Positions 19,362 through 39,141 are shown, counted from the stretch's first letter. The stretch is 64,000 nucleotides of DNA from Clostridia bacterium (GCA_017521005.1 JAFXEC010000011.1:16450-80449), one strand, 5' to 3'. Translations and numbers: made by a program. Notes: generated by a model from the letters alone, not told the origin.

Positions 19362-20141
19362 TTATTTTTTAGTATCTTTTTTATCTTTATTGTTCTTTTT
19401 ATCTTCCTTTTCTGCAAGTGCAGCTAAAAGATTTGTGTATTTATCCATAAACTTATCATGTGCGGCTTGTGGTATTTCTAAATCAAATGGTTTGAACTCA
19501 AAATTCTTGTCTTTACGTGAAATTAATTCTTTTACAAAGAATTCCAGTAGTTTAGGGTTTCGCGCAAGGATAGGACCAAGCAAGTATGTGCCACGGAAAC
19601 TATTGTGCTTGAAACCTTCTACTCCAGAGTCTTTTTCAGCACCATAACCCTTGATTATTTCAAACATAGGAAGGGACACCTTTCTTAAAATTCCTTGATG
19701 GTTTTCAAAACCTAGGATTAAATCATCTACTTTTTTATGTTTGAATACACATTCAGAAACTTTTCTTTCTTTTGTTCTTTCTGTGAAATAATGAAATATT
19801 CCGAGAGTTTCTACTTTGTTTTCGCCATCTTGTATATGTGTACCAAATAATTCTACTGAATTACCAGTTACTAAGAAGAATTTACCACCCAATACGGCTT
19901 GGGAAATAGCAGGTAAATATTTTTTTAGGTAATCTAAAGCTAGTAATTGGTTTGCTTCAGTTCCGGCACCTATATATACAAGATCTAAATCTCCAAGGTA
20001 AAGCTCGTCATTTAGAGATATCTCTTTAATTTCAACTTCTATACCTTGTTTTTCTAGAGCATATTTAAGTGCTAGTATGTTTCCGCTTTCACCATAAAGG
20101 TTAAGTATATCGTAAAATAAATGTCCAATTGTTATTTTCAT
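19362..20141 (-). CDS. gatD: Lipid II isoglutaminyl synthase glutaminase subunit GatD (class I GATase-like)
   Basis: CobQ/GatD-like GATase fold. Overlaps the murT stop (TAATG). Confidence 0.8.
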   Translation of the reverse strand: MKITIGHLFYDILNLYGESGNILALKYALEKQGIEVEIKEISLNDELYLGDLDLVYIGAGTEANQLLALDYLKKYLPAISQAVLGGKFFLVTGNSVELFGTHIQDGENKVETLGIFHYFTERTKERKVSECVFKHKKVDDLILGFENHQGILRKVSLPMFEIIKGYGAEKDSGVEGFKHNSFRGTYLLGPILARNPKLLEFFVKELISRKDKNFEFKPFDLEIPQAAHDKFMDKYTNLLAALAEKEDKKNNKDKKDTKK

Positions 20142-21475
20142 TACACTTCCTCCTTCTTAGCAAAAGTTGATTTAAATGGTTCTACATAGTCAAAATTAAG
20201 AATTCCAAATATGTAGTCTGTTTTATTCATATCTACAGCTTCTTTAGCTTCAGTTAAGTTATTAAAGATGTATATTTGTTCATTTGGATAGCCAGCAAAA
20301 ATTAATCTTGTGGCTATATCATAGGCATTTGGCCCTGCACAAATAATGTTTTTTACATCGGGCGTGTTTAATATTTCAAAGTCTATATCATATAACCAGG
20401 ATAAATCATCAAATGCATATCTTCTGCTTATTTCTTTCCAACCGATTACTACTGTTTTAGAACCATTAAATCTTTCTGTGAAAAGTAAAGATTGATTAAA
20501 TGTAGTACTGTTTTCGTTTTTATTATTTAACACATACACATCACTATCGTTGTATTTGTAGTGGTTGTACATTTTAGAGTTAGCGTTAAGTTCGCTAATA
20601 TGTTTAGCAACCTCTGTTTCGTCTAGACCAAGTGCGCAAGCAGTGGTATATGCAGCCATTGTGTTGTATACACTGTATAATAAATCGTATTGTAATTTTA
20701 CTTTGTGTTTATTATCTACAGTCATTTCAAAGTTTGGATAATCTATATTTGTAATAGTGTATTTAGATTCAGGATGACCGAAGTCGCATTTTGGACAATT
20801 AAATTTGCCGTGGTTTTCAAAATGATAGTAGTCATATACTAATTTCGTATTACATTTTGGACAGTAATTTATATTTAAATTCTTAAACTTTTTATCGGTA
20901 TAAGATAAATCAGTTTTATCTAAAGAATAATATGTAGTTTCATATTCGTTTCCTAAATTGAATTTTTGAAGATATGGATCATCGCCATTTAAAATTAAAT
21001 GTGCATGATATGGTAATGCTTTTTTTATTTCTTCATAAACTAAATCTACGTGGCCTTGCCTTGGTGGTTGGTCACGAGTAATGTTTGTTATTACTATGTG
21101 ATTTGGTTTAACATCTGGAAATGCAAATTTTGCATATCTTTCGTCCATTTCAAAAACAAATACATCACCTTTAACTTTACCAGATAATGTACAGTTTTCT
21201 AAAAGCGTTGTAGTTATACCTGCAGTTAGATTAGCACCAGATGCGTTATGAACAACTTTATAGCCCATGCTTCTATATATGTGAGCAATTATACTCGAAG
21301 TACTTCCTTTACCAGAAGAACCAGTAACAGCGATTTTAAGTTCTGGTAATTCTAGTTTTGTTAATAATTTTTTATCTATTTTAAGAGCAATATCTCCAGG
21401 CAAAGAACTTCCTCTTTTAAGAATCTTACCTGCAACAATTGCAGCTTTTCCTAAAATAATTGCTAATGATTTCAT
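20141..21475 (-). CDS. murT: Lipid II isoglutaminyl synthase Mur-ligase subunit MurT
   Basis: Mur ligase P-loop ...IAVTGSSGKGSTS... and C-terminal Zn-ribbon-like CPKCNTK...CPKCDF (DUF1727-like). Confidence 0.82.
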   Translation of the reverse strand: MKSLAIILGKAAIVAGKILKRGSSLPGDIALKIDKKLLTKLELPELKIAVTGSSGKGSTSSIIAHIYRSMGYKVVHNASGANLTAGITTTLLENCTLSGKVKGDVFVFEMDERYAKFAFPDVKPNHIVITNITRDQPPRQGHVDLVYEEIKKALPYHAHLILNGDDPYLQKFNLGNEYETTYYSLDKTDLSYTDKKFKNLNINYCPKCNTKLVYDYYHFENHGKFNCPKCDFGHPESKYTITNIDYPNFEMTVDNKHKVKLQYDLLYSVYNTMAAYTTACALGLDETEVAKHISELNANSKMYNHYKYNDSDVYVLNNKNENSTTFNQSLLFTERFNGSKTVVIGWKEISRRYAFDDLSWLYDIDFEILNTPDVKNIICAGPNAYDIATRLIFAGYPNEQIYIFNNLTEAKEAVDMNKTDYIFGILNFDYVEPFKSTFAKKEEV

Positions 21476-21565
21476 GTTATCACCTCAAATTACACATATA
21501 TTATACTCATAAAAGCCCTATTTTACAAGGGTATAAGAAAAAACTCTACGGTTTAGGTAGAGTTT

Positions 21566-23122
21566 TTAGAATAAATCAAATATTTTCTTAAATCTTGGTA
21601 AAGAAGCTTGTTCTTCTTTGTTAAAGATTTGCATTTTAAGTAATGCAACTGCATAAACTATGGCTCCAAACGCTACACAAATAAACATGTTTATTGCTGT
21701 TGGAACAAATCCAGAGAATAGCTTATATAATATGAAAACTACAATTCCCATTATAGCTGATGAAATAAGTGGTTTCACATATACGTTTTTGATATCTGGT
21801 TTCTTTCTTAATGTTCTATATAATACAGTTGTTACTATAATACAGTTAACTAAGTGGTAAATAATTGTTGTTATTGGAACGATTATTTCACCATAAATAG
21901 GTATTAATTTAATGTTTAATATATATTTAACAATTGCGGCTACTAGTACAGACATACCTGGCACAAATAGTTTTCCTATTCCATTTAATGATCCTTGAGA
22001 GACTTGAGCTATTAATGAGAAGATTATTGCCCATACTTCTATTTGAAGAAGAGTTGAGCCTAAAGGAGCATTAGGGAATATTGTATTAAATATTGGAGTA
22101 GCAAGAACTGCTAGACCCACCATACAAGGGAACGCTATTATTGAAGATAATTTCATAGAGAAATTAATCTTATTTAGCGCAGCTTGTTTTTCTTTTTTTA
22201 CAATGTGTTCTGTTATTATTGGAATAAGTGGTGTAACAAATGCTACATTAAATGTGTGTGGTATAGATACTAAAATATCTACTTTACCAACTATTATTCC
22301 GTACTTTTCATTAGCTGTAGCTAAGTCATAACCGTATTTAGTTAATCCTTCCATAACAGACAATATATCTACTATTCCAGATAATGAAACAACTATACTT
22401 GCAAAAGAGATAGGTATTACATATCTTAATATTTTTTTAATTGTTACTCGTGTACTGTCTTGCATATGCGGTGCAGAGTTTTTAATAGCTTCATGTATAC
22501 TTGTTCTGTGTTTTTTGTAGAATAAGTATAGGTAAACAAGAGCTGTTAAACAAGATACTGCGGTAGCAGCTGTTGAACCTATGGCCATTATTTCTGGACT
22601 CTTACCAGTTAAAAGCAGTACGAATATTACTGAGAATACGCTATTTACAACTTGTTCTAATACTTGAGCTTTACTATGTGCAGACATATTTTGCATTCCC
22701 ATAAAATATCCTCTAAATACAGCTGCTATAGAAACGAACCATACAGCAGGAGCTAGAGTTGCAAGTGTCCAACGTACGCCTTCGTTAGAAAGTATATTAG
22801 TTGCAATGTAATTTGATCCAAATAAAAGAATACATGCAAAAAACAATCCTACAAATGTAAATAATTTAAGTGCTGTTCTAAATACTTTATGAGCACCTTT
22901 TGCATCACCAACAGCAAGTTTTTCTGAAACAAGCTTTGATATTGCGTTAGGAACTCCTGTTGTAGCAATCGCTAAGATGAATACATAAACCTTATATCCG
23001 GTACCGTAATAACTATTACCAGCATCCTGGAATCCTTCTATGTTAGTAAGGATAACTCTATATATAAATCCCAAAAACTTTATTAAAAGTTGAGCGGCCA
23101 AAACAACAGTAACACTTTTCAT
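21566..23122 (-). CDS. MOP-superfamily flippase (MurJ/SpoVB/Wzx-like polysaccharide biosynthesis protein)
   Basis: About 14 predicted TM helices. Start uncertain: ATG 23122, or TTG 23146 eight nt after GGAGGG. Confidence 0.65.
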   Translation of the reverse strand: MKSVTVVLAAQLLIKFLGFIYRVILTNIEGFQDAGNSYYGTGYKVYVFILAIATTGVPNAISKLVSEKLAVGDAKGAHKVFRTALKLFTFVGLFFACILLFGSNYIATNILSNEGVRWTLATLAPAVWFVSIAAVFRGYFMGMQNMSAHSKAQVLEQVVNSVFSVIFVLLLTGKSPEIMAIGSTAATAVSCLTALVYLYLFYKKHRTSIHEAIKNSAPHMQDSTRVTIKKILRYVIPISFASIVVSLSGIVDILSVMEGLTKYGYDLATANEKYGIIVGKVDILVSIPHTFNVAFVTPLIPIITEHIVKKEKQAALNKINFSMKLSSIIAFPCMVGLAVLATPIFNTIFPNAPLGSTLLQIEVWAIIFSLIAQVSQGSLNGIGKLFVPGMSVLVAAIVKYILNIKLIPIYGEIIVPITTIIYHLVNCIIVTTVLYRTLRKKPDIKNVYVKPLISSAIMGIVVFILYKLFSGFVPTAINMFICVAFGAIVYAVALLKMQIFNKEEQASLPRFKKIFDLF

Positions 23123-23396
23123 AAATGTTTGTTTTTTTATAGCCAAAAAAATTCCCTCCAATTCTAAGGTAATATTATATCTTATTTTAAAAGTCATTTC
23201 AACCGATTTTAGTGTTAAATTGTGTGTTTGTATAAATATATATAAATATACAAATAACAATAGTATGAACAAATCCATTTAATTGACTTTACCCTACTTC
23301 TGTGGTAATATTACTGTGTTAAGTGGGGTAAACACACATTAATATATATGTGCTAAATTAAAATATAGAATAGGCACGTATTATGGAGAGTGAAAT

Positions 23397-24497
23397 ATGA
23401 GAGAATATATAATATATGGGGCACTAACTTTATTATCATTTTTAGTTAGTTATTTTACAGTGCCATTTGCAATTAAATTTGCAAAGAAAATGGGGATTAT
23501 AGATAATCCAAAACAAGATGACAGAAGAGTTCATAAAGAACCTACACCGCGTGTTGGTGGTATAGCAATGGTTGCTGGTATGGCGGTAACAATAATTACA
23601 TTTTGTATTTTATGTTTAATATTAAATATGGATATAAATACTAAATTAATTGGTTATGCAGTAGGTGGTTTAATTATTGTAACAATGGGATTTGTAGATG
23701 ATATGAAAAATCTAAGACCATTATACAAATTTTTGTTCCAATTAATTGCCGGTATGGTAATATACGTATTTGGAATAAGTATTGCAGGAGTAAAAATACC
23801 ATTCTTGTATCCACATATAATAGATTTTGGGTTATGGTCATTCCCTTTAACTCTAGCGTGGGTTTTAGGAATAACAAACGCTGTAAACTTAATTGATGGA
23901 TTAGATGGGTTGGCTGCTGGTATTTCAGCAATAGCAAGCATCTCATTGCTAGTAATATTCTCATTAGTAGGTGCGGGAATGGAAGTTATAGTAATAACTC
24001 TAGCCTTAGCTGGTGCAACAATAGGATTTTTACCATACAATTTTAATCCAGCAAAAACATTTATGGGTGATACAGGATCAAACTTCTTAGGATTTACATT
24101 ATCTACAGTATCTATTATGGGTATGGCGAAAGGATATACAATTTTAGCAATAGTAACACCAATAATTGTTTGTGGGGTACCAGTATTTGATATGTTGTTT
24201 GCAATAGTAAGAAGACTTGCAAAACATCAAAAAATAACAGCACCGGATAAAGGACATATACATCATAGATTATTAAAACATGGCTTTTCACAAAAGCAAG
24301 CAGTGTTAATACTTTATGGTTTAACAAGTATTTTAGGAATTATAGCAGTAACATTAGTAAGTGGGTTTACAGTACAAGGAATAATTTGTATTGCAGTGGC
24401 TATAATAATATGGGCAATAGGTTACATATATAACGATATGAAAGTAAGAAGAAGTACGATGATTCCAGAGGAAACATCGAAAGAAGATAAAGTTTAG
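23397..24497 (+). CDS. Glycosyltransferase family 4 polyprenyl-phosphate GlcNAc-1-P transferase (TagO/WecA/MraY-like)
   Basis: ...GIIDNPKQDDRRVHKEPTPRVGGIA... and multi-TM MraY/WecA family signature. Confidence 0.85.
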   Translation: MREYIIYGALTLLSFLVSYFTVPFAIKFAKKMGIIDNPKQDDRRVHKEPTPRVGGIAMVAGMAVTIITFCILCLILNMDINTKLIGYAVGGLIIVTMGFVDDMKNLRPLYKFLFQLIAGMVIYVFGISIAGVKIPFLYPHIIDFGLWSFPLTLAWVLGITNAVNLIDGLDGLAAGISAIASISLLVIFSLVGAGMEVIVITLALAGATIGFLPYNFNPAKTFMGDTGSNFLGFTLSTVSIMGMAKGYTILAIVTPIIVCGVPVFDMLFAIVRRLAKHQKITAPDKGHIHHRLLKHGFSQKQAVLILYGLTSILGIIAVTLVSGFTVQGIICIAVAIIIWAIGYIYNDMKVRRSTMIPEETSKEDKV

Positions 24498-24509
24498 GAG
24501 GAATAAAAG

Positions 24510-24959
24510 ATGGGATTAAAACAAGATTTAATGCAAGCACTAAAAGAAGCTATGCAAAATAAAGACACATTAAAAAAAGAAACAATAACAATGCTTAGAG
24601 CAGCAATACTTCAAGTAGAAAAAGATGGATTAAAAGAATTATCTGAAGCAGAAATGGGAACAATAGTTGCTAAAGAAGTTAAAAAGAGAAAAGAATCTAT
24701 AGTAGATTTTGAAAAAGGTGGAAGACCAGATATTGTAGAACAACTTAATAAAGAAATAGAAATATTATCTGTATACTTACCAGAACAATTATCTGAAGAA
24801 GAAATAACAAAGATGGTTGTAGAAGCTATAGCAGCAGTTGGTGCAACTGGAATGAAAGATATGGGTAAAGTAATGGGAAGCATTAGAGAAAAGACAGCTG
24901 GTAAAGCAGATGGTAAATTAGTATCAGATATAGTTAAGGCAGAACTAGGAAAACTTTAA
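24510..24959 (+). CDS. GatB/YqeY domain protein
   Basis: Full-length match to the YqeY pattern ...LKEAMKNKD...TMLRAA...KE..KRKESI..F.KGGR.DIVEQ. Confidence 0.85.
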   Translation: MGLKQDLMQALKEAMQNKDTLKKETITMLRAAILQVEKDGLKELSEAEMGTIVAKEVKKRKESIVDFEKGGRPDIVEQLNKEIEILSVYLPEQLSEEEITKMVVEAIAAVGATGMKDMGKVMGSIREKTAGKADGKLVSDIVKAELGKL

Positions 24960-25007
24960 TAGGCATAAGATATAAGAGGAAGTAAAACAAAACTAAAAGG
25001 AGCAAGT

Positions 25008-26252
25008 ATGAAAAATATAATTATTAGAAATAGTAATAGATTTAAGAGTGTTTTTGCACAAGTGAATTTGTTGTTACCATTAACAGCAGAGGATATGAGC
25101 AAGAATGCTCTTCTTGCTATGATGCTAAAGAAATCAAATAGCAAGTATAAAACAGAAAGAGAATTAGAAAGAAAATTAGCAGAGTTATACAACACATCAT
25201 TTGGTGCAGGTGTTGGTAAAGTAGCAAATATGTACGATATAACATTTGGTATAGAAATATTAAATGTTAAATATACAGGAAAAGAAGCATTAGATGAAGC
25301 TGTGGATGTATTATGTACATCAATTTGTGAACCAAATTTTGTAGATGGGAAGTTTGACGAAAAAACATTTGAATTAGAAAAATCTAGTTTGCTTGAAAGA
25401 ATCGCAGAAGAAAAAGATAATAAGAAAAAATATGCATTAGACTCATTAGAAAGAGAAATGTTTAAAGGAACAGACTATGGTTATCCTTTATATGGAACTG
25501 CTGAAGATGTGGTAAAAATAACTAACGAAGAATTAGTTAAACATTATTACAATGTAATATCTAAAGCAGAAGTTGTAGTTGCTACTGTTGGTAATCTAGA
25601 AAATATGGATGGCTTAGCTGATACTATACACACAAGAATATGTGGAAAGTGTGGAAAACATACAGTAGAATTTACACCACTTGTGAAACAAGCAATTAAT
25701 AAAGAAATAGAGACAAAAGTAGAAGAACAAGATATAAATCAAAGTATAATTTGTATTGGCGCAAGAATTAAAGATGTTAAGACAGAAGATGTATATAAAG
25801 CACGTCTTTTTGATAACATTTTAGGAGGAACACCAGCAGCAAAACTATTCCAAAATGTAAGAGAAAAAGAAAGTTTAGCGTATTTTGCAAAATCTATGTA
25901 CAATATGTTCACAGCAAGCGTATGTATGTTTGCAGGAATAGCTCCAGAAAAATATGAAAAAGCTAAAGAAGTAATGCTAAAACAATTAGAAGATATAAAG
26001 TCTGGAAATGTTTCAGAGATAGAATTTAATGCAGCAAAGGAAAACTTAATTTCTGCATATAAAGAAAAACAAGATTCTAAAGGCGGTCAAGCAAAAGGAT
26101 TATTTAGCAATGAAATATACTTTGGTAGAACTGTAGATTTTGATGAAATGATAGAAGAAATTTCTAAACTAACGCTAGACGATGTAGTAGAAATTGCAAA
26201 TAGAGTAGTGGTAACAAATATCTTCTTGTTAGGAGGTAAGGCAGATGTTTAA
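25008..26252 (+). CDS. M16-family peptidase homolog lacking HxxEH (YfmF-like)
   Basis: Insulinase fold length. No HxxEH motif. Paired with the active M16 gene. Confidence 0.6.
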   Translation: MKNIIIRNSNRFKSVFAQVNLLLPLTAEDMSKNALLAMMLKKSNSKYKTERELERKLAELYNTSFGAGVGKVANMYDITFGIEILNVKYTGKEALDEAVDVLCTSICEPNFVDGKFDEKTFELEKSSLLERIAEEKDNKKKYALDSLEREMFKGTDYGYPLYGTAEDVVKITNEELVKHYYNVISKAEVVVATVGNLENMDGLADTIHTRICGKCGKHTVEFTPLVKQAINKEIETKVEEQDINQSIICIGARIKDVKTEDVYKARLFDNILGGTPAAKLFQNVREKESLAYFAKSMYNMFTASVCMFAGIAPEKYEKAKEVMLKQLEDIKSGNVSEIEFNAAKENLISAYKEKQDSKGGQAKGLFSNEIYFGRTVDFDEMIEEISKLTLDDVVEIANRVVVTNIFLLGGKADV

Positions 26253-27531
26253 AGTAGAGACAAACTTAAAAACAGGTGAAGAAATATACAAAAAGGTACT
26301 ACCTAATGGTCTAAAAGTATATATTTGCAAGAAACCAGGATATATTAAAAAAGTAGGAATGTATGGAACAGTATATGGTTCAATTGACAACGATTTCATA
26401 GATATAACAACTGGTGAAAGACTTAAAGTAGAGGATGGAATAGCTCACTTTTTAGAGCACAAGTTATTCGAACAAGAAGATGCAAATGCGTTAGATGTAT
26501 TTGCAAAAATGGGTGTAAGTTCAAATGCATACACATCTTTTGATCATACAGTATACTTCTATGAAACAAGTTCTAAACATGAAGAATGTTTAAATAAGTT
26601 ATTAGAATTTGTAAATACGCCATATTTTACAGATGAAAATGTTGAAAAAGAAAAAGGAATAATAGCTCAAGAACTAAGGATGTATGAAGATGAACCAAGT
26701 TCGGTAGCATATTATAATGTTCTAAGAGCCATGTATCAAAGATTTCCACTTAATGTAGATATTGGTGGAACAGTAGAATCTGTATATAGAATAGATAAGG
26801 AAGCGCTTTATTCATGCTACAATACATTCTATAATCCAGCCAATATGTTTGTTATAGTAATTGGCGATGTGGATGAAGTGGAAACAGTAAAGCAAATTGA
26901 AGGCTTCTTTAACGAAAATGTGAATAGAAAAACAGGCGCAGTTGAAAGATTTGTTTTAGAAGAACCTAAAGAAATAGCTGAAAAAAGAATAGAAAAGAAA
27001 CTTGATGTGTATATGCCATATATTTGTATGGGATTTAAACATGAAAAACAAGACGGTAAGACTAATGCCAGAAATACCGTAATAATGGAAATAATAGATG
27101 ATGTGTGTTTCTCAGCTTTATCAGACTTCCATGAAAGAATGTTTAACAGAAAGATTATTACAGAACCAGTAGAAATTACATACGAATCTGGTAAAGAGTT
27201 TTCACATACAATACTATTTGCAGTTTCTAAAAAGCACGAGGAGTGTGAAAAAGAGATAAAAACATATTTTGAAGAATTAAGACAAAATGGAGTAGATAAA
27301 GAATTGTTTGAAATAGCAAAAAAGAAGAAGCAAGGTGAGCTTATCTATGATGCTGAAAACTTTATGGGAATACATAGAACAGTAATAGATAGTATAATTC
27401 AAGATACAGATGTGTTTGAAATGGCAAATGCAATAAAAGATATAACTAAAGAAGATGTAGACAATTTCATAAGAGAAAATTTAAGGGAAGATAATATGGT
27501 TATATCTAAAGTAACAGAAAAAAATAAATAA
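26245..27531 (+). CDS. M16-family zinc peptidase (YfmH-like)
   Basis: HFLEHKLFE zinc-binding HxxEH motif. Confidence 0.75.
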   Translation: MFKVETNLKTGEEIYKKVLPNGLKVYICKKPGYIKKVGMYGTVYGSIDNDFIDITTGERLKVEDGIAHFLEHKLFEQEDANALDVFAKMGVSSNAYTSFDHTVYFYETSSKHEECLNKLLEFVNTPYFTDENVEKEKGIIAQELRMYEDEPSSVAYYNVLRAMYQRFPLNVDIGGTVESVYRIDKEALYSCYNTFYNPANMFVIVIGDVDEVETVKQIEGFFNENVNRKTGAVERFVLEEPKEIAEKRIEKKLDVYMPYICMGFKHEKQDGKTNARNTVIMEIIDDVCFSALSDFHERMFNRKIITEPVEITYESGKEFSHTILFAVSKKHEECEKEIKTYFEELRQNGVDKELFEIAKKKKQGELIYDAENFMGIHRTVIDSIIQDTDVFEMANAIKDITKEDVDNFIRENLREDNMVISKVTEKNK

Positions 27532-27591
27532 TATAAAAGATAATAAAAGCTCTATTTTATAGAGTTTTTATTATCTTTTTATCAAAATTAT

Positions 27592-27620
27592 TTGACAAAT
27601 GCAAAATGGTAAGGTATAAT
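27592..27620 (+). promoter_or_regulatory. Strong sigma-A promoter driving an ORF-less transcript
   Basis: TTGACA, 17 nt spacer, TATAAT. Preceded by the yfmH terminator hairpin at 27545-27575. Confidence 0.65.
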
Positions 27621-27626
27621 ATGGCC

Positions 27627-28070
27627 CTACAAACAATTTAGTAGATACTAACTATGTATCTTGTTGTATGTTAGAGTAGTGTTTTGAATGCGATTATTGC
27701 ATGTGCCCGCGAAACCCGACCACGGGTGGTGCTATAGGTTAGTAGCGGCGAGCGAACGCTTGGCACTAGCTGGGTAATGAAACCTTAATCGGCGGCTAAG
27801 ACCCGTTAGTAGAAACACAACTTTGATATAAATATGTTGGATAATCCGATGTATCCGAAAGGACTTGGTTATTCAAGGTGAATGGCATAAGCGTGAAGGG
27901 TAAACGTGACATGTCAGCGGGGAAGACTGCAAAGATATACTATATAACAAAACCGTCCGGAAGGATTTGTTACGAACTAGTATACTCCTCGTAGATGAAA
28001 AGGGGTAACCCACTCCTTATCTAATAGTCTATAAAGCAGGAAAGAGGCACGCAGGCCTCTTTCTTTTTTT
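27627..28070 (+). ncRNA. Candidate structured noncoding RNA (~440 nt, GC-rich) with 23S-rRNA-like motifs
   Basis: No ORF of 60 aa or more. GC far above local background. Ends in GC hairpin AAAGAGGCACGCAGGCCTCTTT plus T-run. Contains GAAACCCGACCAC, AGTAGCGGCGAGCGAAC, CTTGGCACTAG and GGGGTAACCCAC, which resemble the 23S 5-prime domain as recalled. Confidence 0.5.
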
Positions 28071-28077
28071 GCTTAAA

Positions 28078-28104
28078 TGTCGAAAAATGCCGAAAAATAG
28101 CGAA
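28078..28104 (+). promoter_or_regulatory. Three helically phased Spo0A-box-like repeats (TGTCGAA / TGCCGAA / TAGCGAA)
   Basis: Repeats at 28078, 28088 and 28098, about 30-55 bp upstream of TTGACA (28134) and TATAAA (28157) of the spo0E-like gene. Confidence 0.4.
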
Positions 28105-28175
28105 ACTTGCGGTCGATTGTTGGTGCAAAATTATTGACACTGTAAAATAAAAATGTTATAAATTTGGTGTGAGGG

Positions 28176-28361
28176 ATGATGAATAACATGCTAAACAAAA
28201 TAAATATACTAAGAGAAAAATTAGAAAGACAATTATTAGAAGAAAAACCTTATAATGAGGTGTTGAAAACGAGTAGAGAAATTGATGAACTTTTAGTAGA
28301 GTTTTATAAAAAGGAGACTCCTATTAAGGACGAAACTTTATTTTTGATCAAACAAAATTAA
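28176..28361 (+). CDS. Spo0E-like sporulation regulatory aspartyl-phosphate phosphatase
   Basis: ...KINILREKLERQLLEEKPYNEVLKTSREIDELLVEFYK... helical hairpin typical of the Spo0E family. Confidence 0.6.
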   Translation: MMNNMLNKINILREKLERQLLEEKPYNEVLKTSREIDELLVEFYKKETPIKDETLFLIKQN

Positions 28362-28655
28362 AGCAAGTATTATGACTATGCTATAATCAATTTGATTTTC
28401 TTTGAACATAAAAAACAGGGTTACAAGAATTATTAGATCGTCTATATTGATGCTTATTCCAAATAATTCTACTCTGTCATCTGTTAAATTAAAGAGATTA
28501 TTTTTATCTATATTTCTATTTTGATTTGTTTCATTTGAAATTTGTTCGCCAGAATAATTTTCAGGTATGTGATTTAAAGAGCACATATTGTTCATATATG
28601 CTCTTTGAGGGAAATAAAAAGGGTTGTTATAAAAAGGATAATACATTTTAATCAC
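28338..28655 (-). CDS. Hypothetical protein, Y/P/N-rich N-terminus, hydrophobic C-terminus
   Basis: Overlaps the upstream gene by ATGA. Third gene of a coupled operon. Confidence 0.45.
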   Translation of the reverse strand: MIKMYYPFYNNPFYFPQRAYMNNMCSLNHIPENYSGEQISNETNQNRNIDKNNLFNLTDDRVELFGISINIDDLIILVTLFFMFKENQIDYSIVIILALILFDQK

Positions 28656-29079
28656 GATCCTTGCCGTTAAATAAGTTAAAAGCTTTCATAACTCCTAAAA
28701 GAGATATGTAAGTATCAATGTTTTTTTGCCTATTTTCTCTTAAGAATGGTTTAAGCGAAGATAGTAAATTTTGCCTTGGGTCTGGGCTGTTCATTCCACT
28801 TAAAACATTTTGAAATTTCATAATAGAATTTAAATCAAAACCACCTAGATTAGGTGAAATTGTTTTGTTCTCCAAGTTTATATCACTTTTAGAATTACTT
28901 GTGTTTAACATACTAACAATTTTTGAAATATCTAATCCGCTAAAATCTGTATTAGAAGTTTGTTTTGGAGTAGTTGGTTCTACTGTATTTACTTCGTTTA
29001 ATTTGCTTTGTATAGAGGCGACAATGTCTAAAATAGGATTGGAAGGTTGGTTTTCTACTTCATTTATTTCGGTATTCAT
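28648..29079 (-). CDS. Hypothetical N/S/T-rich protein (143 aa)
   Basis: Start ATG is immediately adjacent to the stop of the unlisted 54-aa ORF. Confidence 0.5.
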   Translation of the reverse strand: MNTEINEVENQPSNPILDIVASIQSKLNEVNTVEPTTPKQTSNTDFSGLDISKIVSMLNTSNSKSDINLENKTISPNLGGFDLNSIMKFQNVLSGMNSPDPRQNLLSSLKPFLRENRQKNIDTYISLLGVMKAFNLFNGKDRD

Positions 29080-29244
29080 TTAATTATTGTTTTGACCTTG
29101 TTGGGAGTTGTTATTGTTCATACCCAACATTCTTACTAAATTATTCAAATCGTCTTTAGACATGTTTTTAACTATATTAGAAACTTGTTCTAGTTTTTCT
29201 TTATCTACACCAGCTAACATGTTTAGCAAATTAGAATTCAACAT
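29080..29244 (-). CDS. Small N/Q-rich protein (54 aa), not in the ORF track
   Basis: Manual translation MLNSNLLNMLAGVDKEKLEQVSNIVKNMSKDDLNNLVRMLGMNNNNSQQGQNNN. AGGAGATG RBS. Translationally coupled to the 143-aa gene. Confidence 0.5.
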   Translation of the reverse strand: MLNSNLLNMLAGVDKEKLEQVSNIVKNMSKDDLNNLVRMLGMNNNNSQQGQNNN

Positions 29245-29318
29245 ATTATTCACAAAATCATCTCCTTATATCCATTTATTAAAGTATATGCAGGGAGATG
29301 TAAAAAAGTTACAAAGAG

Positions 29319-29843
29319 GTGATTATAATTTTAGGAAAGTTTATAACAAGAGATGTATCAAGTTTGTACAATATAGAAAGAATAGCTGAGGATGGCGTCA
29401 TATTTGCAAATAAAAGAAAAATTAGTATTTACAAAGTAAATCCGGTAAATATAATAGCTTGGAATAAGGAAATGAAAAACAAAATAATATCAGCATATAT
29501 AGCCACGTTAAGGGGAATGCCAGACATGTTTCAAATAGTTGTGACAAAGCAAAAAAGCACATTGAAAAACGATATAGAACTGTACAAAAAAAGGTTGTTA
29601 GAAGTCGAAAATTATGGGTTGAAAATGGCTCTTAAGAATTATGTGGAATATTTACAAAAGATAGAAAACGAAAATGGAATATGCGAAATAAAACACTATT
29701 TAATAGTAGAAGAAAAAGGAAGAGAAGAAACAGAGAACATACACAATGCGTTTTTAAATATGAATGAGTTTGGTATGGAAATAAAAAGGGTAAATAGAAA
29801 AGCGGAAGTTGAAAATGTTATTAAGAGAGCGATGGAAACATGA
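29319..29843 (+). CDS. VirB4/TraC-like ATPase, N-terminal segment (split gene)
   Basis: ...EDGVIFANKRKISIYKVNPVNIIAWNKEM...IISAYIATLRG...FQIVV... matches the VirB4 N-domain pattern (DGiI..kiY.l.dvN...e.e.i...f..fL...Qi.i). Stop overlaps the next ATG (ATGA). Confidence 0.55.
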   Translation: MIIILGKFITRDVSSLYNIERIAEDGVIFANKRKISIYKVNPVNIIAWNKEMKNKIISAYIATLRGMPDMFQIVVTKQKSTLKNDIELYKKRLLEVENYGLKMALKNYVEYLQKIENENGICEIKHYLIVEEKGREETENIHNAFLNMNEFGMEIKRVNRKAEVENVIKRAMET

Positions 29844-31516
29844 GACGAAATACTGAAATTAAAAAGATTCTGCCGTCAGAGGTAAAAGAAAAATACAATT
29901 GTATGAAAGTGCAAGCAAAGTATATAAATGTGATGAGTATAGTAAGTATGAACGAAGTGATTTTCCTAGAGATGATTAATACTCTACTTTTACAAGAGGA
30001 AGTAACTATATCGTTTCATATATATAGACAAAATGGTCCAGAATTCTTGAGAAAATTAGCAAGAAGTGTGTTGGAAAGTGGTGCGGAAATTAAATCAATA
30101 AAGCAAAATCAATTGGATATTGAAGTGTTGGAAAAAAACAAGAAGAATGCCGAAGAAATAAAAAAAGAAATACAGGTAAATAATGAAGAAGTATATATAG
30201 TAGAAATATATGTTGCGCTTACAGCAAATGATGAAAACGAAGTGCTAAAAAAGAGTAATAATATAAAAAATGTTTTATATACAAAAGGAATTGTGTTGAA
30301 CCCAACATATTTTAAGCAAAAGAGCGGATATATTGCAACTTTGCCGTTGTTACAAACAAACAGCACATTAAGCGATTATACGGAGAATATTATGCTTACT
30401 ACAACTCTTGCAAGGATGTTCCCATTTTTTGAAAATGACATTTTAAATGAAAATGGAGTGTTTATAGGATGTCACGAAGATAAACATATTAAGTTATCAC
30501 TTCTTGCCCCACAGAATTTAAATTATAATATGTGTGTTTTTGGAAGTAGTGGAGTCGGAAAATCATTTTTTATAAAAGTATTAATAATGCGTAATTTTTA
30601 TAATAATGTTAATCAAATAATAATAGATCCAGAAGGTGAGTATAAGGATATAGTTTTAAGTTTAGGCGGGAACGTTTATGATATAGCAACATACAATCCT
30701 ATGTATATTGAAGAGAGATTTGCAAAAAGAAATGAAGATTTTTTAGCTGATACGATAAAACTAACGGAAGAATATCTATTTTATAGGCATGGCTTAGAAA
30801 ATGTAACATCACAAATAAAGAATGAATATTTAAAATATGGGATAACACAAGAGATAGAAACGCTTTATGAAAAAAGTAGAGAAGACAAAATATATTTGCA
30901 CCCTAAATACAAGACAAACTTCCCGCATATTAAACACATCTTGGATAGATTAAAAATACAGAATAACTTAAAAGAAACTGCTGGAATACCTACAACAGCT
31001 AAATTACACTGCTTTGTATTAAAGGGCAAGAATAAAGAAGAAATTAACAAAGAAATATCGGTATTTCTTCCTAAAATAAAACAATTAATACAAGAGAATA
31101 CGTTAATTTATTTTGATGAAATATGGAAAACAATAAACGCAAATATTACGGGGACTTTTATAGAAGAGATATATAATTTTTTCAAAACTTTAAGAAAAAG
31201 GAAGGCAGGTATAGTAGCTATTAGTCAAGATATAGGCGATTTATTTGCGATAGATGATGGTAATTTTGGAAAGAGTATATTAAACAATTCGTTTACTAAA
31301 ATATTTTTCAAAATGTCTTATTCGGATTTAGAAAAACTTCAAGGTATAGAAGAAACATTGAATTTGAGAGAGAAAACAACAAAGTTGATTAGAGGCGAAG
31401 CATATGTTCTACAGGGAGAAAGTAAATTTATTATTAGAATAGAAGCAAATGATTTCGAAAAAAATTTAATTGAAAAGGAGAGTGTATATGAAGAAAGTTT
31501 TAATAGCAATGGATAA
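29840..31516 (+). CDS. VirB4/TraC-like (CagE/TrbE) ATPase, C-terminal ATPase segment
   Basis: Walker A FGSSGVGKSF, IIIDPEGEY, Walker B LIYFDEIWK (DEAW-type) and AISQDIGDLF. Confidence 0.7.
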   Translation: MRRNTEIKKILPSEVKEKYNCMKVQAKYINVMSIVSMNEVIFLEMINTLLLQEEVTISFHIYRQNGPEFLRKLARSVLESGAEIKSIKQNQLDIEVLEKNKKNAEEIKKEIQVNNEEVYIVEIYVALTANDENEVLKKSNNIKNVLYTKGIVLNPTYFKQKSGYIATLPLLQTNSTLSDYTENIMLTTTLARMFPFFENDILNENGVFIGCHEDKHIKLSLLAPQNLNYNMCVFGSSGVGKSFFIKVLIMRNFYNNVNQIIIDPEGEYKDIVLSLGGNVYDIATYNPMYIEERFAKRNEDFLADTIKLTEEYLFYRHGLENVTSQIKNEYLKYGITQEIETLYEKSREDKIYLHPKYKTNFPHIKHILDRLKIQNNLKETAGIPTTAKLHCFVLKGKNKEEINKEISVFLPKIKQLIQENTLIYFDEIWKTINANITGTFIEEIYNFFKTLRKRKAGIVAISQDIGDLFAIDDGNFGKSILNNSFTKIFFKMSYSDLEKLQGIEETLNLREKTTKLIRGEAYVLQGESKFIIRIEANDFEKNLIEKESVYEESFNSNG

Positions 31517-32729
31517 TGAAACGTTACTTAGTCAAATAAAAAAATGTGGTAAATATTTAACATATGGTTATGATATTGATAATAAAGAAAATGTACTAGA
31601 ATATTTAAGTAAAAATGTGGTTGATGTTATAGTTACGAAAGACACGTTAAATGGAGATATTGAATTTAAGGAGTATATAAGAGAAATAAGAAAAAGACAA
31701 GAGACAATAAAAATTGTAGTAGTAATAGCAGCGCTAACGGAAGATATAAAAGGTTTTTTGTTAGCAAATGAGGTAAATAACATAATAGAAGGAGAGTGTG
31801 TAGCATTTAGCAAAATACTAGAGATGATAGATAGCAAAAGTGGAATAATAGAGAAAATGGAAACACAAAAAAATGTGATAAAACAAAGTCCAAAGATAAC
31901 TACAAAGCAAAAGATTTGCGTTTTTGGAACAAGTGGTGCAGGTAAATCATATATTTCAAGCATACTAGCACACCACATTAGTAAAAAATACAAATTGAAC
32001 ACATTGCTTATAGATATGGATCTCCAAAACGCCGCGGTGGATATATATAACAATTTAACAAATGCTACAAATTCACTGGATTGTTTGATGGAAGAAATAG
32101 ATAATGACACTTTTAATAGAGAGTCCTTGCTAGATTATATTAGTAGGGGTGAGAAAAATAATAAACTATCGTTTATAACAAATAACGTAGGCGTTTATGA
32201 ATGTCAAAATAGGTTGTCTAAAAAGTATTATGAAAAATTGTATACGGAAGCGGAAAAAAATTATGACACTATAATAATAGATATGCCGTCAACACCATTT
32301 TTAGATGTAGTTCCGTTTTCGCTTATGCAAGCAGATAAAATTCTGTTTGTGCTTAATCCTAATTTTATTAGCATTAGACAAGCTATAAAATATATTGATT
32401 TAATGGTAAATGTATGGCAAATAGATAAAGAAAAAATATTTTTAATAATAAATAAAACAACCGAGAACTCTTTAACACTTAAACAAGTGAAAGCAATGTT
32501 AAGAGATTATACTGTGTTGCTAAAGTTGGAAGAAACGAGAAATGTTGAAAAAATAGTAAATGGTTTAGCAAATATAACTGGCGAAGAAATAATAGATACA
32601 GATGAATTGACAAAGATGTTAAATATAGATGACTGTGTACAAAGAGTGAAAGGTGAGGAAAAAACGAGTGCTTATAAATGCATACAGAACTGTTTTGGTA
32701 GAAAAGAAAACAAAAAAGATACAAAATAG
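31488..32729 (+). CDS. TadZ/CpaE-like ATPase: receiver-like N-domain plus ParA/MinD-type P-loop domain
   Basis: N-terminal ~130 aa with CheY-like pattern (MKKVLIAMDNETLL...VVDVIVTKD...). Then VFGTSGAGKSYISSILA P-loop and ...LLIDMDLQN.... Confidence 0.6.
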   Translation: MKKVLIAMDNETLLSQIKKCGKYLTYGYDIDNKENVLEYLSKNVVDVIVTKDTLNGDIEFKEYIREIRKRQETIKIVVVIAALTEDIKGFLLANEVNNIIEGECVAFSKILEMIDSKSGIIEKMETQKNVIKQSPKITTKQKICVFGTSGAGKSYISSILAHHISKKYKLNTLLIDMDLQNAAVDIYNNLTNATNSLDCLMEEIDNDTFNRESLLDYISRGEKNNKLSFITNNVGVYECQNRLSKKYYEKLYTEAEKNYDTIIIDMPSTPFLDVVPFSLMQADKILFVLNPNFISIRQAIKYIDLMVNVWQIDKEKIFLIINKTTENSLTLKQVKAMLRDYTVLLKLEETRNVEKIVNGLANITGEEIIDTDELTKMLNIDDCVQRVKGEEKTSAYKCIQNCFGRKENKKDTK

Positions 32730-33843
32730 TAACGAAATAATAAAGCAAATTGCTAAGCGATTGTTGGATGAGGAACTAGAAACAATAGAAAAAGGAAATA
32801 AAGAAAAGCTGGTTAAAAAAATAGAAACCAATTTAATTAATGATTTTGAAATAGTGGAAGAAAAAACAGTAGATTACTATATAAAGGAAGTGCTAAACAG
32901 AATATATGGATACGGTATTTTGGAAAAGTTTTTAAGGGATGGAAAGACTACAGATATACGAGCAGTCGCGTTTGATAACATTTATATAAAGCAGATGGGA
33001 AAATGGAAAAGAGTAAATGAAACATTTGCGAACAATGAAGAATTTGAAGAATATATTAGATTTTGTGCATTGAAAAACAATTATAATATAAACAACGAGA
33101 ATCCTATTGGAGTTTTTAGTGATAGAAAAATGGGGCTCAGAATAGAAGCTGGTATAAGCCCGGTTAATATTAACAATTCTAGTTTGGTTATAAGAGTTCA
33201 CAGAAAAGAGATGGATAAAACATTAGAATTATTAAAACAAAAATATAAGATGTTAGACGAAAAATCATATATGACAGTTAAAAAAGCTGTAAACAGAATG
33301 AATAATATTTTAATTTGTGGAAAAGGCGGGAGCGGAAAAACGACATTGCTAAGAGCGATTATAAATGAGCTGCCACAGACTATTGCTATAAATACTAATG
33401 AAGAAACGGCAGAATTGTACTTAGAAGGAAGAAATGTTATTCAAAGAGAGTGTTTGTTGACTAGAACGGAAGACAAGAACATAGATTTGGATAGACTGTC
33501 TAGGCATTCTTTGGTGATGTCAAATGATGTTATTGTAATAGGTGAATTAAAAGGAAAAGAAGCAAATTCGTTTTTTGACGCGGTTTCAACAGGACATATG
33601 GGACTTGCAACAGTACATTCGGATTCCGCAAAAAACGCAATTGATAGAGTAATTACATTAATAAGAAAAGACTCAAAAGCAACACAATATACAGAAAAAT
33701 TCTTAAGACGATTTTTGGCAGAGACAATAGATTATATTATTTGGATGAAAGATTTTGAAGTGAAAGAAATAAGTGCTATCAAGTATGATGAAATTAATGA
33801 TAAATTTAAGATGGAATTTTTATATAAGAAGGTGCAGTGTTGA
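32653..33843 (+). CDS. CpaF/TadA/VirB11-family secretion ATPase
   Basis: Walker A ILICGKGGSGKTTLLRAII, Walker B ...DVIVIGELKG, His-box-like ...GLATVHSDSAKNAIDR. Confidence 0.7.
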   Translation: MRKKRVLINAYRTVLVEKKTKKIQNSNEIIKQIAKRLLDEELETIEKGNKEKLVKKIETNLINDFEIVEEKTVDYYIKEVLNRIYGYGILEKFLRDGKTTDIRAVAFDNIYIKQMGKWKRVNETFANNEEFEEYIRFCALKNNYNINNENPIGVFSDRKMGLRIEAGISPVNINNSSLVIRVHRKEMDKTLELLKQKYKMLDEKSYMTVKKAVNRMNNILICGKGGSGKTTLLRAIINELPQTIAINTNEETAELYLEGRNVIQRECLLTRTEDKNIDLDRLSRHSLVMSNDVIVIGELKGKEANSFFDAVSTGHMGLATVHSDSAKNAIDRVITLIRKDSKATQYTEKFLRRFLAETIDYIIWMKDFEVKEISAIKYDEINDKFKMEFLYKKVQC

Positions 33844-34706
33844 TAGAAATAATACAATTTAGTTTGTTAATATGTGCTGTATATATAATGGTTGAATGGG
33901 CGATAAAAGATTATATAAGTCCTGTAAAATTACTTAATAGAAGCAAGATGTTTCATTCGTTAAATGTAGAGTTGCAGAACTTAAATATTAAAAGGGGGTT
34001 AAGAGGTAAAGTTCGAATAACTACTTTGACTGTAATTATAATTAGTGCAATTTTGTTTTTAATATTTGTTTTTATTTTATTTATATATATAAGGATTTTA
34101 AGTACCGCCGTAATTCTTTCGTTACCTATTTTAATTTCACCAATAATTATATCTAAAATTCTAGTTATACGAAATAAAGAAAAAATATCTAAGCAAATCC
34201 CTTTTTACACAATTAATATAAAGAATCAAATGAAAGAAGATAATGATATAGTTCAAGCTATAAAAAGAACAAAGGTAGAAGAACCACTAAAAAAACATAT
34301 AGATAAATTCAAATTAAATGTATTTAACGGAATGAATGTGATATCTGCTATGGAAAAACTAAAAAGTGATGTGGATGTAAAAGATTTTGGTGAAATGATA
34401 GAGACGTTTGAAGTTTGTTATAAAAATGGTGGCGATTTTGTAAAAGTGTTAGAAAAAATTATTCTTATGAAAACTAAAGAAAGGATGTATAAAGAAGAGA
34501 CTGAAGAAAAGGCTTTCGCGTCGGTAGTTACATTGATAATAATGATGTTGTTGAGCGTTTTTGTAATTGCAACATTTGTATTTGGTAATTTAGAATATGC
34601 AAATATAGTACGAAGTACATTTGGTGGAAAGCTAATTTTAAATTTAACTGCAATATCGTACATGGTAATGACATGGATAATTGCTAAAGTATATAAGGAG
34701 GATTAA
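33837..34706 (+). CDS. TadB/TadC-like platform protein (T2SS-F domain)
   Basis: TM, then cytoplasmic helical domain (...VISAMEKLKSD...CYKNGGDFVKVLEKI...), then C-terminal TMs. GspF/TadB architecture. Confidence 0.55.
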   Translation: MLIEIIQFSLLICAVYIMVEWAIKDYISPVKLLNRSKMFHSLNVELQNLNIKRGLRGKVRITTLTVIIISAILFLIFVFILFIYIRILSTAVILSLPILISPIIISKILVIRNKEKISKQIPFYTINIKNQMKEDNDIVQAIKRTKVEEPLKKHIDKFKLNVFNGMNVISAMEKLKSDVDVKDFGEMIETFEVCYKNGGDFVKVLEKIILMKTKERMYKEETEEKAFASVVTLIIMMLLSVFVIATFVFGNLEYANIVRSTFGGKLILNLTAISYMVMTWIIAKVYKED

Positions 34707-34707
34707 G

Positions 34708-35436
34708 ATGGATATAGATGCTATGATAGATAGAGTAAGAAATAATGTGCTGGAACTAGACACAGACAGAAGACTAGATGTATTAAAAGGTGATCTACAA
34801 TCGATTTCTGAAAAAGCGTTAGAAAAGTCGATGAATTATATAATAAAATCAATACCTATGCCGGATGCTGTTAGAGATGTATTAAAAGATGTTAAGGAAA
34901 CCATAAAAACGAAAGAGCTTAGGGAGATTATAAAAACAGCAGTAAACAGTAGTATTAGGGAAGGTTTGGAAATAGCGGGCGTATCAAAAACAAATATTAA
35001 TACGTTAAAAGATATGAAAAACTTTGCTTTTAAGGGAGGACTGGTTATATTGTTAAAGAATGGCCTCGAGATAGTGGAAAATAAGTTCTTGAAAAATAAC
35101 ATTGTAAGCGATTATGTGTATAGTTTTTTTACAAAACTAAAAAACTGCATTTTAAGTAAGGAATTCTTAAAGAAGATAGATTCAATGGTGGATAGATTAA
35201 CAAATAAAAAACAAGAATACATTGAAAAATGTGAATCGTGGTATGATGCATATAGAAGCATGGATATAGTTAAGATTAATAAGTTATCTGAAGAGCTTGG
35301 GACTAATCATTATATAATTTCTAGATATGATGACTGCAATAGAGAAAATAAAATAATACAAAATATGACAAAAATGATAAATGCTAAAAAAGGGTTCCTT
35401 TCATTAGAACAGCAAAAACTGTGTGAATCAATGTAA
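34708..35436 (+). CDS. Hypothetical helical protein (243 aa) in the secretion-like cluster
   Basis: AAGGAGG RBS before MDIDAMIDRV.... No TM. Confidence 0.5.
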   Translation: MDIDAMIDRVRNNVLELDTDRRLDVLKGDLQSISEKALEKSMNYIIKSIPMPDAVRDVLKDVKETIKTKELREIIKTAVNSSIREGLEIAGVSKTNINTLKDMKNFAFKGGLVILLKNGLEIVENKFLKNNIVSDYVYSFFTKLKNCILSKEFLKKIDSMVDRLTNKKQEYIEKCESWYDAYRSMDIVKINKLSEELGTNHYIISRYDDCNRENKIIQNMTKMINAKKGFLSLEQQKLCESM

Positions 35437-35494
35437 TTTCGGGTATTGAAAGCAAAAATAATATGTAGTATAATGGTGCCAGGAGAGGGTGTTT

Positions 35495-35725
35495 ATGTCT
35501 AAATTAAAGGAAGTTCCAAATGCAAAAGCAAAATTAATAGGGATGTTAATATCTATAGCACTGATGGTATTTTCTGTTACGCAAGTATATTATCTTGCAT
35601 TATACACATTTGGACGTGAAATATCTGAAGATAAATTGGCAGTATATAAATGGGTTGTAAAGCTTGTTAATTATGACGAAAAAACAGATTCGACATTACA
35701 AGATGCTGCGCCAGATGCCGAGTAG
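35495..35725 (+). CDS. Small single-TM protein (76 aa)
   Basis: GGAGAGGG RBS before ATG MSKLKEVPNAKAKLIGMLISIALMVFSV.... Charged N-terminus, one TM, acidic tail. Confidence 0.45.
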   Translation: MSKLKEVPNAKAKLIGMLISIALMVFSVTQVYYLALYTFGREISEDKLAVYKWVVKLVNYDEKTDSTLQDAAPDAE

Positions 35726-35734
35726 GAGGTTGTT

Positions 35735-36073
35735 ATGAATTTTTACGATAAAGTACATGAACTAGTGAGAAATTTTAAGGATACAGAGGAATATAAAAAA
35801 TATATGGAACTAAAGAAGAAGGTAAAAGAAGATGCTATGTTAAAAGAAAAAATAGATACATTTAGAAACAAGCAAATGGATTACCAAAAACAATATATAA
35901 ACGGTACGCCAATGTCCGATACAAGCAAAGAAGAAATGCAACAACTATATTCTTTAATAATCCAAAGTCCTCTTGGAGCTGAATTTTTTCAAGCGGAAAT
36001 TAGACTAAATGTATTGCTTGCAGATATGCAAAAGATAATAAATGATGGAATGAAGGATATATTAGAGTTTTAA
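35735..36073 (+). CDS. YheA/YmcA/YlbF-like (UPF0342) regulator
   Basis: MNFYDKVHELVRNFKDTEEYKKYMELKKKVKEDAMLKEKIDTFRNKQ... matches the UPF0342 pattern. Confidence 0.65.
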   Translation: MNFYDKVHELVRNFKDTEEYKKYMELKKKVKEDAMLKEKIDTFRNKQMDYQKQYINGTPMSDTSKEEMQQLYSLIIQSPLGAEFFQAEIRLNVLLADMQKIINDGMKDILEF

Positions 36074-39065: not shown

Positions 39066-39141
39066 TGGTGCTCCCGAGACGAATCGAACGTCCGACCAAC
39101 AACTTAGGAGGTTGCTGCTCTATCCACTGAGCTACGGAAGC
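39066..39141 (-). tRNA. tRNA-Arg (anticodon CCT)
   Basis: Reverse complement GCTTCCGTAGCTCAGTGGATAGAGCAGCAACCTCCTAAGTTGTTGG...TTCGATTCGTCTCGGGAGCACCA. Anticodon loop CT-CCT-AA. Confidence 0.85.

Follow-up and report, generated by a model that had tools for sequence, protein, structure and literature searches.

What is encoded by a GC-rich segment without long open reading frames (ORFs) that is bounded by a promoter and a terminator and carries words resembling 23S rRNA? The question is raised by positions 27592-28070 of the window, by which we mean the whole 64,000-nt stretch of Clostridia bacterium DNA analyzed here (GCA_017521005.1 JAFXEC010000011.1:16450-80449; coordinates are counted from its first nucleotide). 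The initial annotation saw in this segment scattered pieces of the 5' domain of 23S rRNA in collapsed and partly permuted order, and offered three candidates, namely a novel structured non-coding RNA (ncRNA), a ribosomal-protein-binding rRNA mimic acting in trans, and a heavily deleted relic of an rRNA (rrn) operon. We find that 27627-28072 (plus strand) is almost certainly a real structured ncRNA gene that represents a new family absent from Rfam 15, and that a single hairpin, similar to helix 13 of 23S rRNA, accounts for the supported likeness to rRNA.

The transcription unit

The sigma-A-type promoter (27592-27620, plus strand) consists of the -35 box TTGACA (27592-27597), a 17-nt spacer, and the -10 box TATAAT (27615-27620), the hexamers matching the consensus at 12 of 12 positions. 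In all homologs, including the diverged ones, TTGACA and a -10-like hexamer are found at the same place. The intrinsic terminator (28038-28072, plus strand) is formed by a stem-loop at 28038-28065, with an 11-bp stem containing five G-C pairs and a 6-nt loop, and by the T-run that follows; the stem (helix 16) is maintained in every homolog via compensatory changes. Given the conserved promoter and terminator, the unit is probably transcribed. The RNA likely starts some 7 nt downstream of the -10 hexamer and ends in the T-run, which would yield a transcript of about 445-446 nt (27627-28072, plus strand). The upstream gene has a separate terminator hairpin at 27535-27579, and therefore the unit is not the 3' UTR of that gene.

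The GC content is 0.40-0.48 over 27600-28099, versus 0.21-0.33 in the flanks and a background of about 0.30. ORFs overlapping the unit reach 46 aa at most, and no conserved ORF was found on either strand among the homologs. The folding z-score is -3.48 for the plus strand versus -1.56 for the minus strand. Thus, the initial annotation described the unit itself correctly, as regards its consensus promoter, strong terminator, GC content far above the background of roughly 30%, and lack of ORFs of 60 aa or longer, and the four sequence blocks that it quoted are all in place.

Known families and distribution of homologs

The search against Rfam covariance models that had been proposed as a check assigns the RNA to no known family. 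No Rfam 15 family matched the region at the gathering score, nor at E<=10 with relaxed filters; the models covered included tmRNA, RNase P, 6S, OLE, ROOL, GOLLD, raiA, HEARO, T-box, riboswitches, ribosomal-protein leaders, and 23S-methyl. Likewise, no Rfam 15 match was found in the homologs L001, L002, L015, L018, L065, L091, L098, L104, and L105, and ARAGORN detected no tmRNA in the window.

When 185,579 species genomes were scanned for a pattern derived from the RNA, true homologs were identified in five gut species represented by metagenome-assembled genomes (MAGs), all named "Clostridia bacterium", in which the RNA is 85-98% identical and fully syntenic. The scan of the genome collection with the junction pattern yielded 76 loci, 71 of which are chance matches in GC-rich coding DNA. 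Further homologs were reached by walking out via homologs of the flanking proteins and by one pattern scan of metagenomes; all RNA sequences, that of the window included, come from MAGs or metagenome contigs. The diverged metagenome lineages possessing the RNA are L088/L091, L098/L099/L102, L100/L101, L105, and L103/L104. A sister clade, here called clade X, comprises L088 (partial), L091 (575 nt), L098/L099/L102 (587 nt), and L100/L101 (573 nt), and further subtypes are the 425-nt RNA of L105 and an AT-rich 458-nt copy in L103/L104, these lineages being placed only via their Spo0E-like proteins, which are 76-78% identical to that of L091. In all homologs, the RNA locus has an M16 peptidase gene on one side and a Spo0E-like gene on the other. 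L104 carries two complete genes of the family in tandem, both equipped with a separate promoter and terminator. In L104:1-583, an X-type copy reaches its 3' end and terminator, and a new TTGACA promoter then leads into the diverged AT-rich copy.

In L078, which belongs to clade X by its peptidase, the RNA has been reduced by deletion to its last 95 nt or so. The remaining 3' hairpin and terminator (L078:5289-5384) sit directly behind the stop codon of the M16 peptidase gene and appear to serve now as the terminator of that gene. In the next relatives, L081, L089, and L090, the intergenic region is short, about 200 nt, and lacks the RNA. The loss in L078 and the absence from these three relatives mean that the RNA is dispensable. 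BLASTN searches of plasmid and phage collections found nothing, and four scans of viral contigs gave chance matches only. As far as exact-seed searches can tell, the RNA is confined to a single group, of genus or family rank, within the uncultured gut Clostridia.

Selection and covariation

The identity of the RNA was compared with that of 4-fold degenerate sites in the adjacent peptidase gene for the same pairs of genomes. Between the window and L018, 66% of 4-fold sites and 98.5% of RNA positions are identical; the corresponding values are 61% and 93% for L001, and 56% and 84% for L015. Hence, the RNA is under strong purifying selection.

Covariation was assessed with RNAalifold on nine distinct sequences, from which the duplicated copy A of clade X was removed, since MAFFT misaligned the 5' region as long as the duplication was kept. 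The resulting structure contains 103 pairs, with 96.2% of alignment cells paired, versus 38-45% in slid controls where partners were shifted by one to three columns. Compensatory double changes are seen in 35 pairs, versus 4-8 in the slid controls and 14.9 +/- 2.4 in shuffles, none of 500 of which reached the observed number, and the covariation score is 0.318 versus 0.06-0.09 in the slid controls. Many invariant G-U pairs are compatible with the plus strand alone. To include the most diverged members, L105 and L104b, the 5' part was joined to the 3' part in a core alignment with an artificial GAAA loop in place of the central domain, and double changes were found there in 36 of 85 pairs. Conservation above the neutral level and compensatory base changes, which generally mark structured ncRNAs, are thus both observed, and the covariation across homologs that the initial annotation proposed to examine is strong by these RNAalifold-based counts. 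Together with the absence of Rfam 15 matches, they bear out its first candidate, a novel structured ncRNA.

Architecture of the RNA

The family core consists of the hairpin P1, the 18-bp helix P2, a multi-helix 3' domain, and the terminator, and P2 encloses an exchangeable central domain. P1 (27643-27661, plus strand, as are all elements of the RNA) has an AGAUAC/GUAUCU stem and a UAACUAU loop, with compensatory double changes in six of six pairs (helix 1). The long helix P2, in which the 5' strand at 27667-27685 pairs with the 3' strand GAAACACAACUUUGAUAUA at 27812-27830, closes the central domain; 99.4% of the cells in its 18 pairs are paired, and its sequence is nearly invariant throughout the family, including L105 and L104b.

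The variable central domain (27686-27811) contains four elements: P3, an ACCA-loop hairpin, the helix 13-like hairpin, and a CUAAGA-loop hairpin. P3 (27691-27696 with 27786-27791) covaries (helix 3). The hairpin ACCCG-ACCA-CGGGU (27714-27727) shows compensatory changes in three of five pairs (helix 5); its ACCA loop is invariant in the clade of the window and clade X, and the hairpin is absent from L105 and L104b. A pseudoknot between the ACCA loop and a downstream UGGU was considered and rejected, as the downstream tetranucleotide varies without compensation. The CUAAGA-loop hairpin CGG-CUAAGAC-CCG (27793-27805) was read from the sequences by eye, and by the same means a loop of this type is seen in L105, with changed stem bases, and in the duplicated copy A of clade X.

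The conserved 3' domain (27831-28030) has compensatory changes in most of its helices (helices 8-15 and their counterparts in the core alignment). It includes a helix at 27837-27876, the helix UGGCAU/AUGUCA at 27883-27916, the hairpin GCGG/CUGC at 27917-27930, a helix at 27937-27983, and a hairpin with a CCCA-containing loop at 27993-28022.

A hairpin similar to helix 13 of 23S rRNA

The references for the rRNA comparison were E. coli 23S rRNA and the Rfam consensus of bacterial large subunit (LSU) rRNA, standing in for the 23S rRNA of the host itself. The block AGTAGCGGCGAGCGAACG at 27741-27758 is identical to positions 241-258 of E. coli 23S rRNA over all 18 nt. In 300 dinucleotide shuffles, the longest match to 23S rRNA was 10 nt on average and 15 nt at most, and by simple arithmetic about 2e-5 matches of 18 nt would be expected for this pair of RNAs. 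The block spans all highly conserved positions of the LSU consensus hairpin uCCcc-uAGUA-Gc-GGCGA-gC-GAAa-ggGGa (structure <<<<<-----<<_____>>---->>>>>). It lies in the hairpin UAGGU-UAGUA-GC-GGCGA-GC-GAAC-GCUUG (27735-27762, plus strand), in which the rRNA-identical 16-mer AGUAGCGGCGAGCGAA occupies 27741-27756. RNAalifold, without any rRNA input, gives the same architecture, that is, a stem, an AGUA/GAA internal loop of the sarcin-ricin type, a 2-bp G-C/C-G mini-stem, and a GGCGA pentaloop, and the outer stem covaries (helices 6-7). The 64-kb window contains the 16-mer a single time, versus 0.02 occurrences expected even with two mismatches allowed, and in the literature it was found only in rRNA or primer contexts.

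Both in architecture and in its conserved loop nucleotides the hairpin is thus a look-alike of 23S helix 13 (E. coli nucleotides about 235-262). The two share a stem of at least 5 bp, a 5-nt 5' strand ending in AGUA, the 2-bp G-C/C-G stem, the GGCGA pentaloop, and a GAAN 3' strand, with 16 of 16 conserved nucleotides identical. They differ in the outer stem, which in the RNA drifts and is rich in U-G and G-U pairs, and in setting, since the copy is embedded in a 446-nt RNA otherwise lacking rRNA similarity. In clade X, the hairpin is UUUGCGU-AAGUA-GC-GGCGA-GC-GAAA-GCGUAAG in L091, and L098 and L100 differ from it by a change of the inner C-G pair to U-G, L100 also having one outer-stem mismatch. 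The rRNA consensus is less conserved (lower-case) where this sole clade X substitution, C to U, occurs, and the pairing is preserved.

In the ribosome, the tip of helix 13 (G248-C249), together with H21 and H88, forms a pocket in the E-site of the 50S subunit; H13 is contacted at multiple points by protein bL35, with bL28 lining the site (PMC13372681). Copies of H21 and H88 were looked for in the RNA and not found. An ACGUGAA sequence of L002 and L015, which by eye resembles the consensus of the H21 loop, was discarded, being unconserved and located inside a stem.

Of the 23S-like blocks listed in the initial annotation, AGTAGCGGCGAGCGAACG stands as an exact match, and GAAACCC-G-ACCAC, CTTGGCACTAG, and GGGGTAACCCAC-TCC match E. 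coli 23S rRNA no better than chance. These three form helices here that differ from those of rRNA, and they are not kept in the diverged L091, L098, L100, and L105; the description of the locus as scattered 23S pieces is therefore unsupported. The lead for CTTGGCACTAG was a 5' sequence of B. subtilis 23S rRNA, and it was dropped, as the diverged homologs have not kept this block and it makes up the 3' strand of the hairpin stem; CTTGGC is the 3' strand of the helix 13-like stem. The 12-mer AATGGCATAAGC, identical to E. coli 23S rRNA positions 2327-2338, was likewise set aside as a chance match: clade X retains only GAATGGCA of it, and the block makes up one side of a local helix.

Modularity of the central domain

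The length of the central domain is 123-126 nt in the clade of the window, 261-267 nt in clade X, 114 nt in L105, and 130 nt in L104b. In clade X, a 127-nt internal tandem duplication of the domain is observed (L091:144-270, with equivalents in L098 and L100), and a CUAAG-loop hairpin in the extra copy takes the position of the helix 13-like hairpin of copy B. The latter is strictly conserved in the clade of the window and clade X. In L105, the AGUA/GAA loop and the G-C mini-stem are kept and the tip UGCG replaces GGCGA, and the AT-rich paralog of L103/L104 is without the hairpin altogether. The tip swap, this absence, and the variability of the surrounding domain place the helix 13 copy outside the conserved core, as an accessory module. 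Accordingly, the suggestion of a ribosomal-protein-binding rRNA mimic acting in trans may hold for one hairpin only, which copies helix 13 in sequence and architecture but is altered or absent in two members of the family.

The same observations bear on the main rival to helix 13 mimicry, which we consider a real possibility, though less than probable: the RNA could be an orphan structured ncRNA in which the hairpin is a generic sarcin-ricin (S-turn) block serving its own tertiary folding or a non-ribosomal partner, the identity to rRNA resulting from convergence or from an old capture of rRNA, with no functional mimicry. AGUA/GAA is the canonical sarcin-ricin motif, a recurrent three-dimensional motif found at several sites of 23S rRNA, and in one of its instances in H. 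marismortui 23S rRNA exactly 9 nt separate the two strands, as in this RNA (PMC1865062). We infer that this instance is helix 13. Seven of the 16 identical nucleotides are set by the recurrent motif, and therefore part of the likeness to rRNA could be convergent. Moreover, L105 retains the S-turn and mini-stem under a different tip, L103/L104 have kept the RNA core without the hairpin, and the host domain has been duplicated and reshuffled among lineages, all of which would suit a generic block. On the other hand, the nine nucleotides GC-GGCGA-GC between the strands of the motif are also identical to rRNA, and in the clade of the window and clade X they are invariant or change with preservation of pairing while the flanking stem drifts; furthermore, an exact match of 18 nt is far beyond the range of the shuffles. 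Helix 13 mimicry by the RNA is a plausible hypothesis.

Genomic context

The genes upstream of the RNA encode YqeY and two M16 peptidases, and the downstream ORF is Spo0E-like (assigned from the window translations and Pfam matches of homologs). No ribosomal-protein genes were found in the 16 kb examined around the RNA (20000-36000), and there is no tRNA or 5S rRNA gene near the locus. With M16 peptidase and Spo0E-like genes as its flanks and a terminator of its own, the RNA does not have the setting of an autoregulatory leader of a ribosomal-protein operon.

The Spo0E-like ORF (28176-28361, plus strand, 61 aa) converges with a 105-aa ORF (28338-28655, minus strand), their 3' ends overlapping by 24 nt; a comparable convergent overlap of 4-18 nt occurs in the relatives. 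The stretch that leads from the RNA terminator to the Spo0E-like ORF (28078-28163) contains three tandem TGNCGAA repeats (TGTCGAA, TGCCGAA, and TAGCGAA), which we take to resemble Spo0A boxes. Behind them come the 26-nt block GCGAAACTTGCGGTCGATTGTTGGTG (28100-28125), which is invariant, and a TTGACA/TGTTATAAAT promoter. All relatives have kept the repeats, the block, and the promoter, even where the RNA is absent.

These elements weigh against the possibility that the RNA is a cis-acting leader, a riboswitch or attenuator that controls the Spo0E-like gene via the terminator, which we regard as very unlikely. Such a role would fit the position of the RNA, which in all carriers directly precedes the Spo0E-like ORF on the same strand, and the fact that it ends in an intrinsic terminator. 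However, about 100 nt with the repeats, the 26-nt block, and a separate conserved promoter intervene between the terminator and the ORF, and they are unchanged in relatives lacking the RNA. In addition, no alternative antiterminator pairing is evident, no riboswitch or T-box of Rfam matches, and each of the two complete tandem genes of L104 has its own promoter and terminator. On the whole, the RNA is probably neither an mRNA leader nor a base-pairing sRNA.

That the locus is a decayed rrn operon retaining its promoter and terminator, the remaining candidate of the initial annotation, can be practically dismissed. The exact 18-nt match to 23S rRNA and the strong promoter would be in keeping with such an origin, but the likeness to rRNA ends with these 18 nt: no extended collinear similarity to LSU rRNA was found, the other shared words of 9-12 nt are near the shuffle mean, no second segment matches 23S rRNA beyond chance, and covariance models of LSU and SSU rRNA give no match in the RNA even at E<=10. 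Further, the RNA has a covarying fold of its own, is far more conserved than neutral sites, and, along with its promoter and terminator, is maintained by selection at a fixed non-rrn locus without tRNA or 5S rRNA genes nearby. A locus coding for one small protein or several is just as improbable: across lineages, none of the ORFs of 29-46 aa present on both strands keeps its position, its frame, or its sequence, the 18 nt listed before their starts contain nothing like a Shine-Dalgarno sequence, and the substitutions follow base-pairing rather than codons.

Several other features of the neighborhood were recorded. In L082, a more distant relative whose peptidase is 61% identical, the site downstream of the peptidase gene (L082:5376-8840) contains a set resembling a diversity-generating retroelement (DGR), with DUF6273, MutS_I, bAvd, and a reverse transcriptase. 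The gene cluster at 29319-35436 of the window has homologs with Pfam matches to TraC-like proteins, VirB4/TraG-type ATPases (AAA_10, DUF87), and CbiA/CpaE-like proteins; its ATPase and membrane-protein ORFs, judged by eye, suggest a Tad-pilus-like or conjugation-like secretion system. Elsewhere in the window, Rfam recognizes a small bacterial SRP RNA (58025-58122) and four tRNA genes, comprising two adjacent tRNA-Ser genes (13679-13894) and a divergent pair of tRNA-Arg genes (39066-39307), with CCT on the minus strand and ACG on the plus strand. Two adjacent ORFs of 259 and 444 aa (19362-21475, minus strand) are presumably GatD/MurT, a glutamine amidotransferase and a Mur-ligase-like protein amidating lipid II, to judge from their translations.

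Proposed function

A long, stable, and presumably strongly expressed RNA with exchangeable hairpin modules would most likely be a scaffold that binds protein in trans. Action in trans is also suggested by the conservation of the terminator and by the fact that the Spo0E-like gene keeps its own promoter and upstream boxes in relatives without the RNA. The reading that we prefer, and hold to be somewhat more probable than its opposite, is that of a stand-alone structured ncRNA that would act in trans as a stable and abundant protein-binding scaffold, forming a ribonucleoprotein, with the helix 13 copy as one docking module on it. For the statement that the RNA is a trans-acting protein-binding RNA, we put the chances at about even.

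The identity of the partner is a separate matter. The most specific candidates would be bL35 and bL28, and the RNA might then titrate or hold free ribosomal protein; yet that the partner is a helix 13-binding ribosomal protein at all seems to us rather unlikely. Slightly more doubtful still, and offered as speculation, is the most detailed version of the scaffold reading. According to it, a stand-alone, strongly expressed RNA imitating helix 13, part of the ribosomal E-site pocket, would capture in trans free bL35 or bL28, or another factor that recognizes helix 13. It would thereby regulate or buffer the assembly of ribosomes in spore-forming gut Clostridia, and its central domain would evolve by duplication and swapping of modules.

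Comparison with known systems and significance

The closest precedents for an rRNA look-alike outside rRNA are leaders of ribosomal-protein mRNAs, for instance those involving L20, L1, S8, and S15, which are reportedly covered in a 2018 review by Meyer. Like them, the RNA contains a small element resembling rRNA that is a candidate binder of a ribosomal protein. Unlike them, it is a terminated stand-alone RNA located by peptidase and Spo0E-like genes rather than a cis-acting 5' UTR of a ribosomal-protein operon, and it matches none of the leader families.

In general appearance, the RNA resembles OLE, ROOL, GOLLD, and the raiA motif RNA of Firmicutes, being several hundred nucleotides long, probably independently transcribed, GC-rich in an AT-rich genome, elaborately folded with covariation, and an orphan as to biochemical function. 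It differs from these classes in that no Rfam model matches it, in its gene neighborhood, and in a much narrower known distribution, within one clade of uncultured gut Clostridia. Finally, if mimicry is assumed, a parallel exists with 6S RNA and decoys of the CsrB type, which also are RNAs acting in trans that imitate the natural nucleic-acid ligand of a protein and sequester that protein. There is no homology to these RNAs, and the imitated ligand would be rRNA rather than promoter DNA or GGA sites of mRNA.

Large, intricately folded bacterial RNAs of orphan function are rare, and new classes have tended to bring new biochemistry. To our knowledge, mimicry of rRNA is so far known from cis-acting mRNA leaders. 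With a faithful copy of a universally conserved rRNA hairpin present in an independent RNA, mimicry of rRNA in trans can be put to a direct test. The natural variants found in relatives, namely the domain duplication, the tandem gene duplication, the swap of the loop tip, and the clean deletion, make tests of structure and function straightforward. If mimicry proves true, the RNA would be the rRNA counterpart of 6S RNA or CsrB decoys; should the hairpin be no more than a structural brick, it would still be a clear case of an RNA module reused outside the ribosome.
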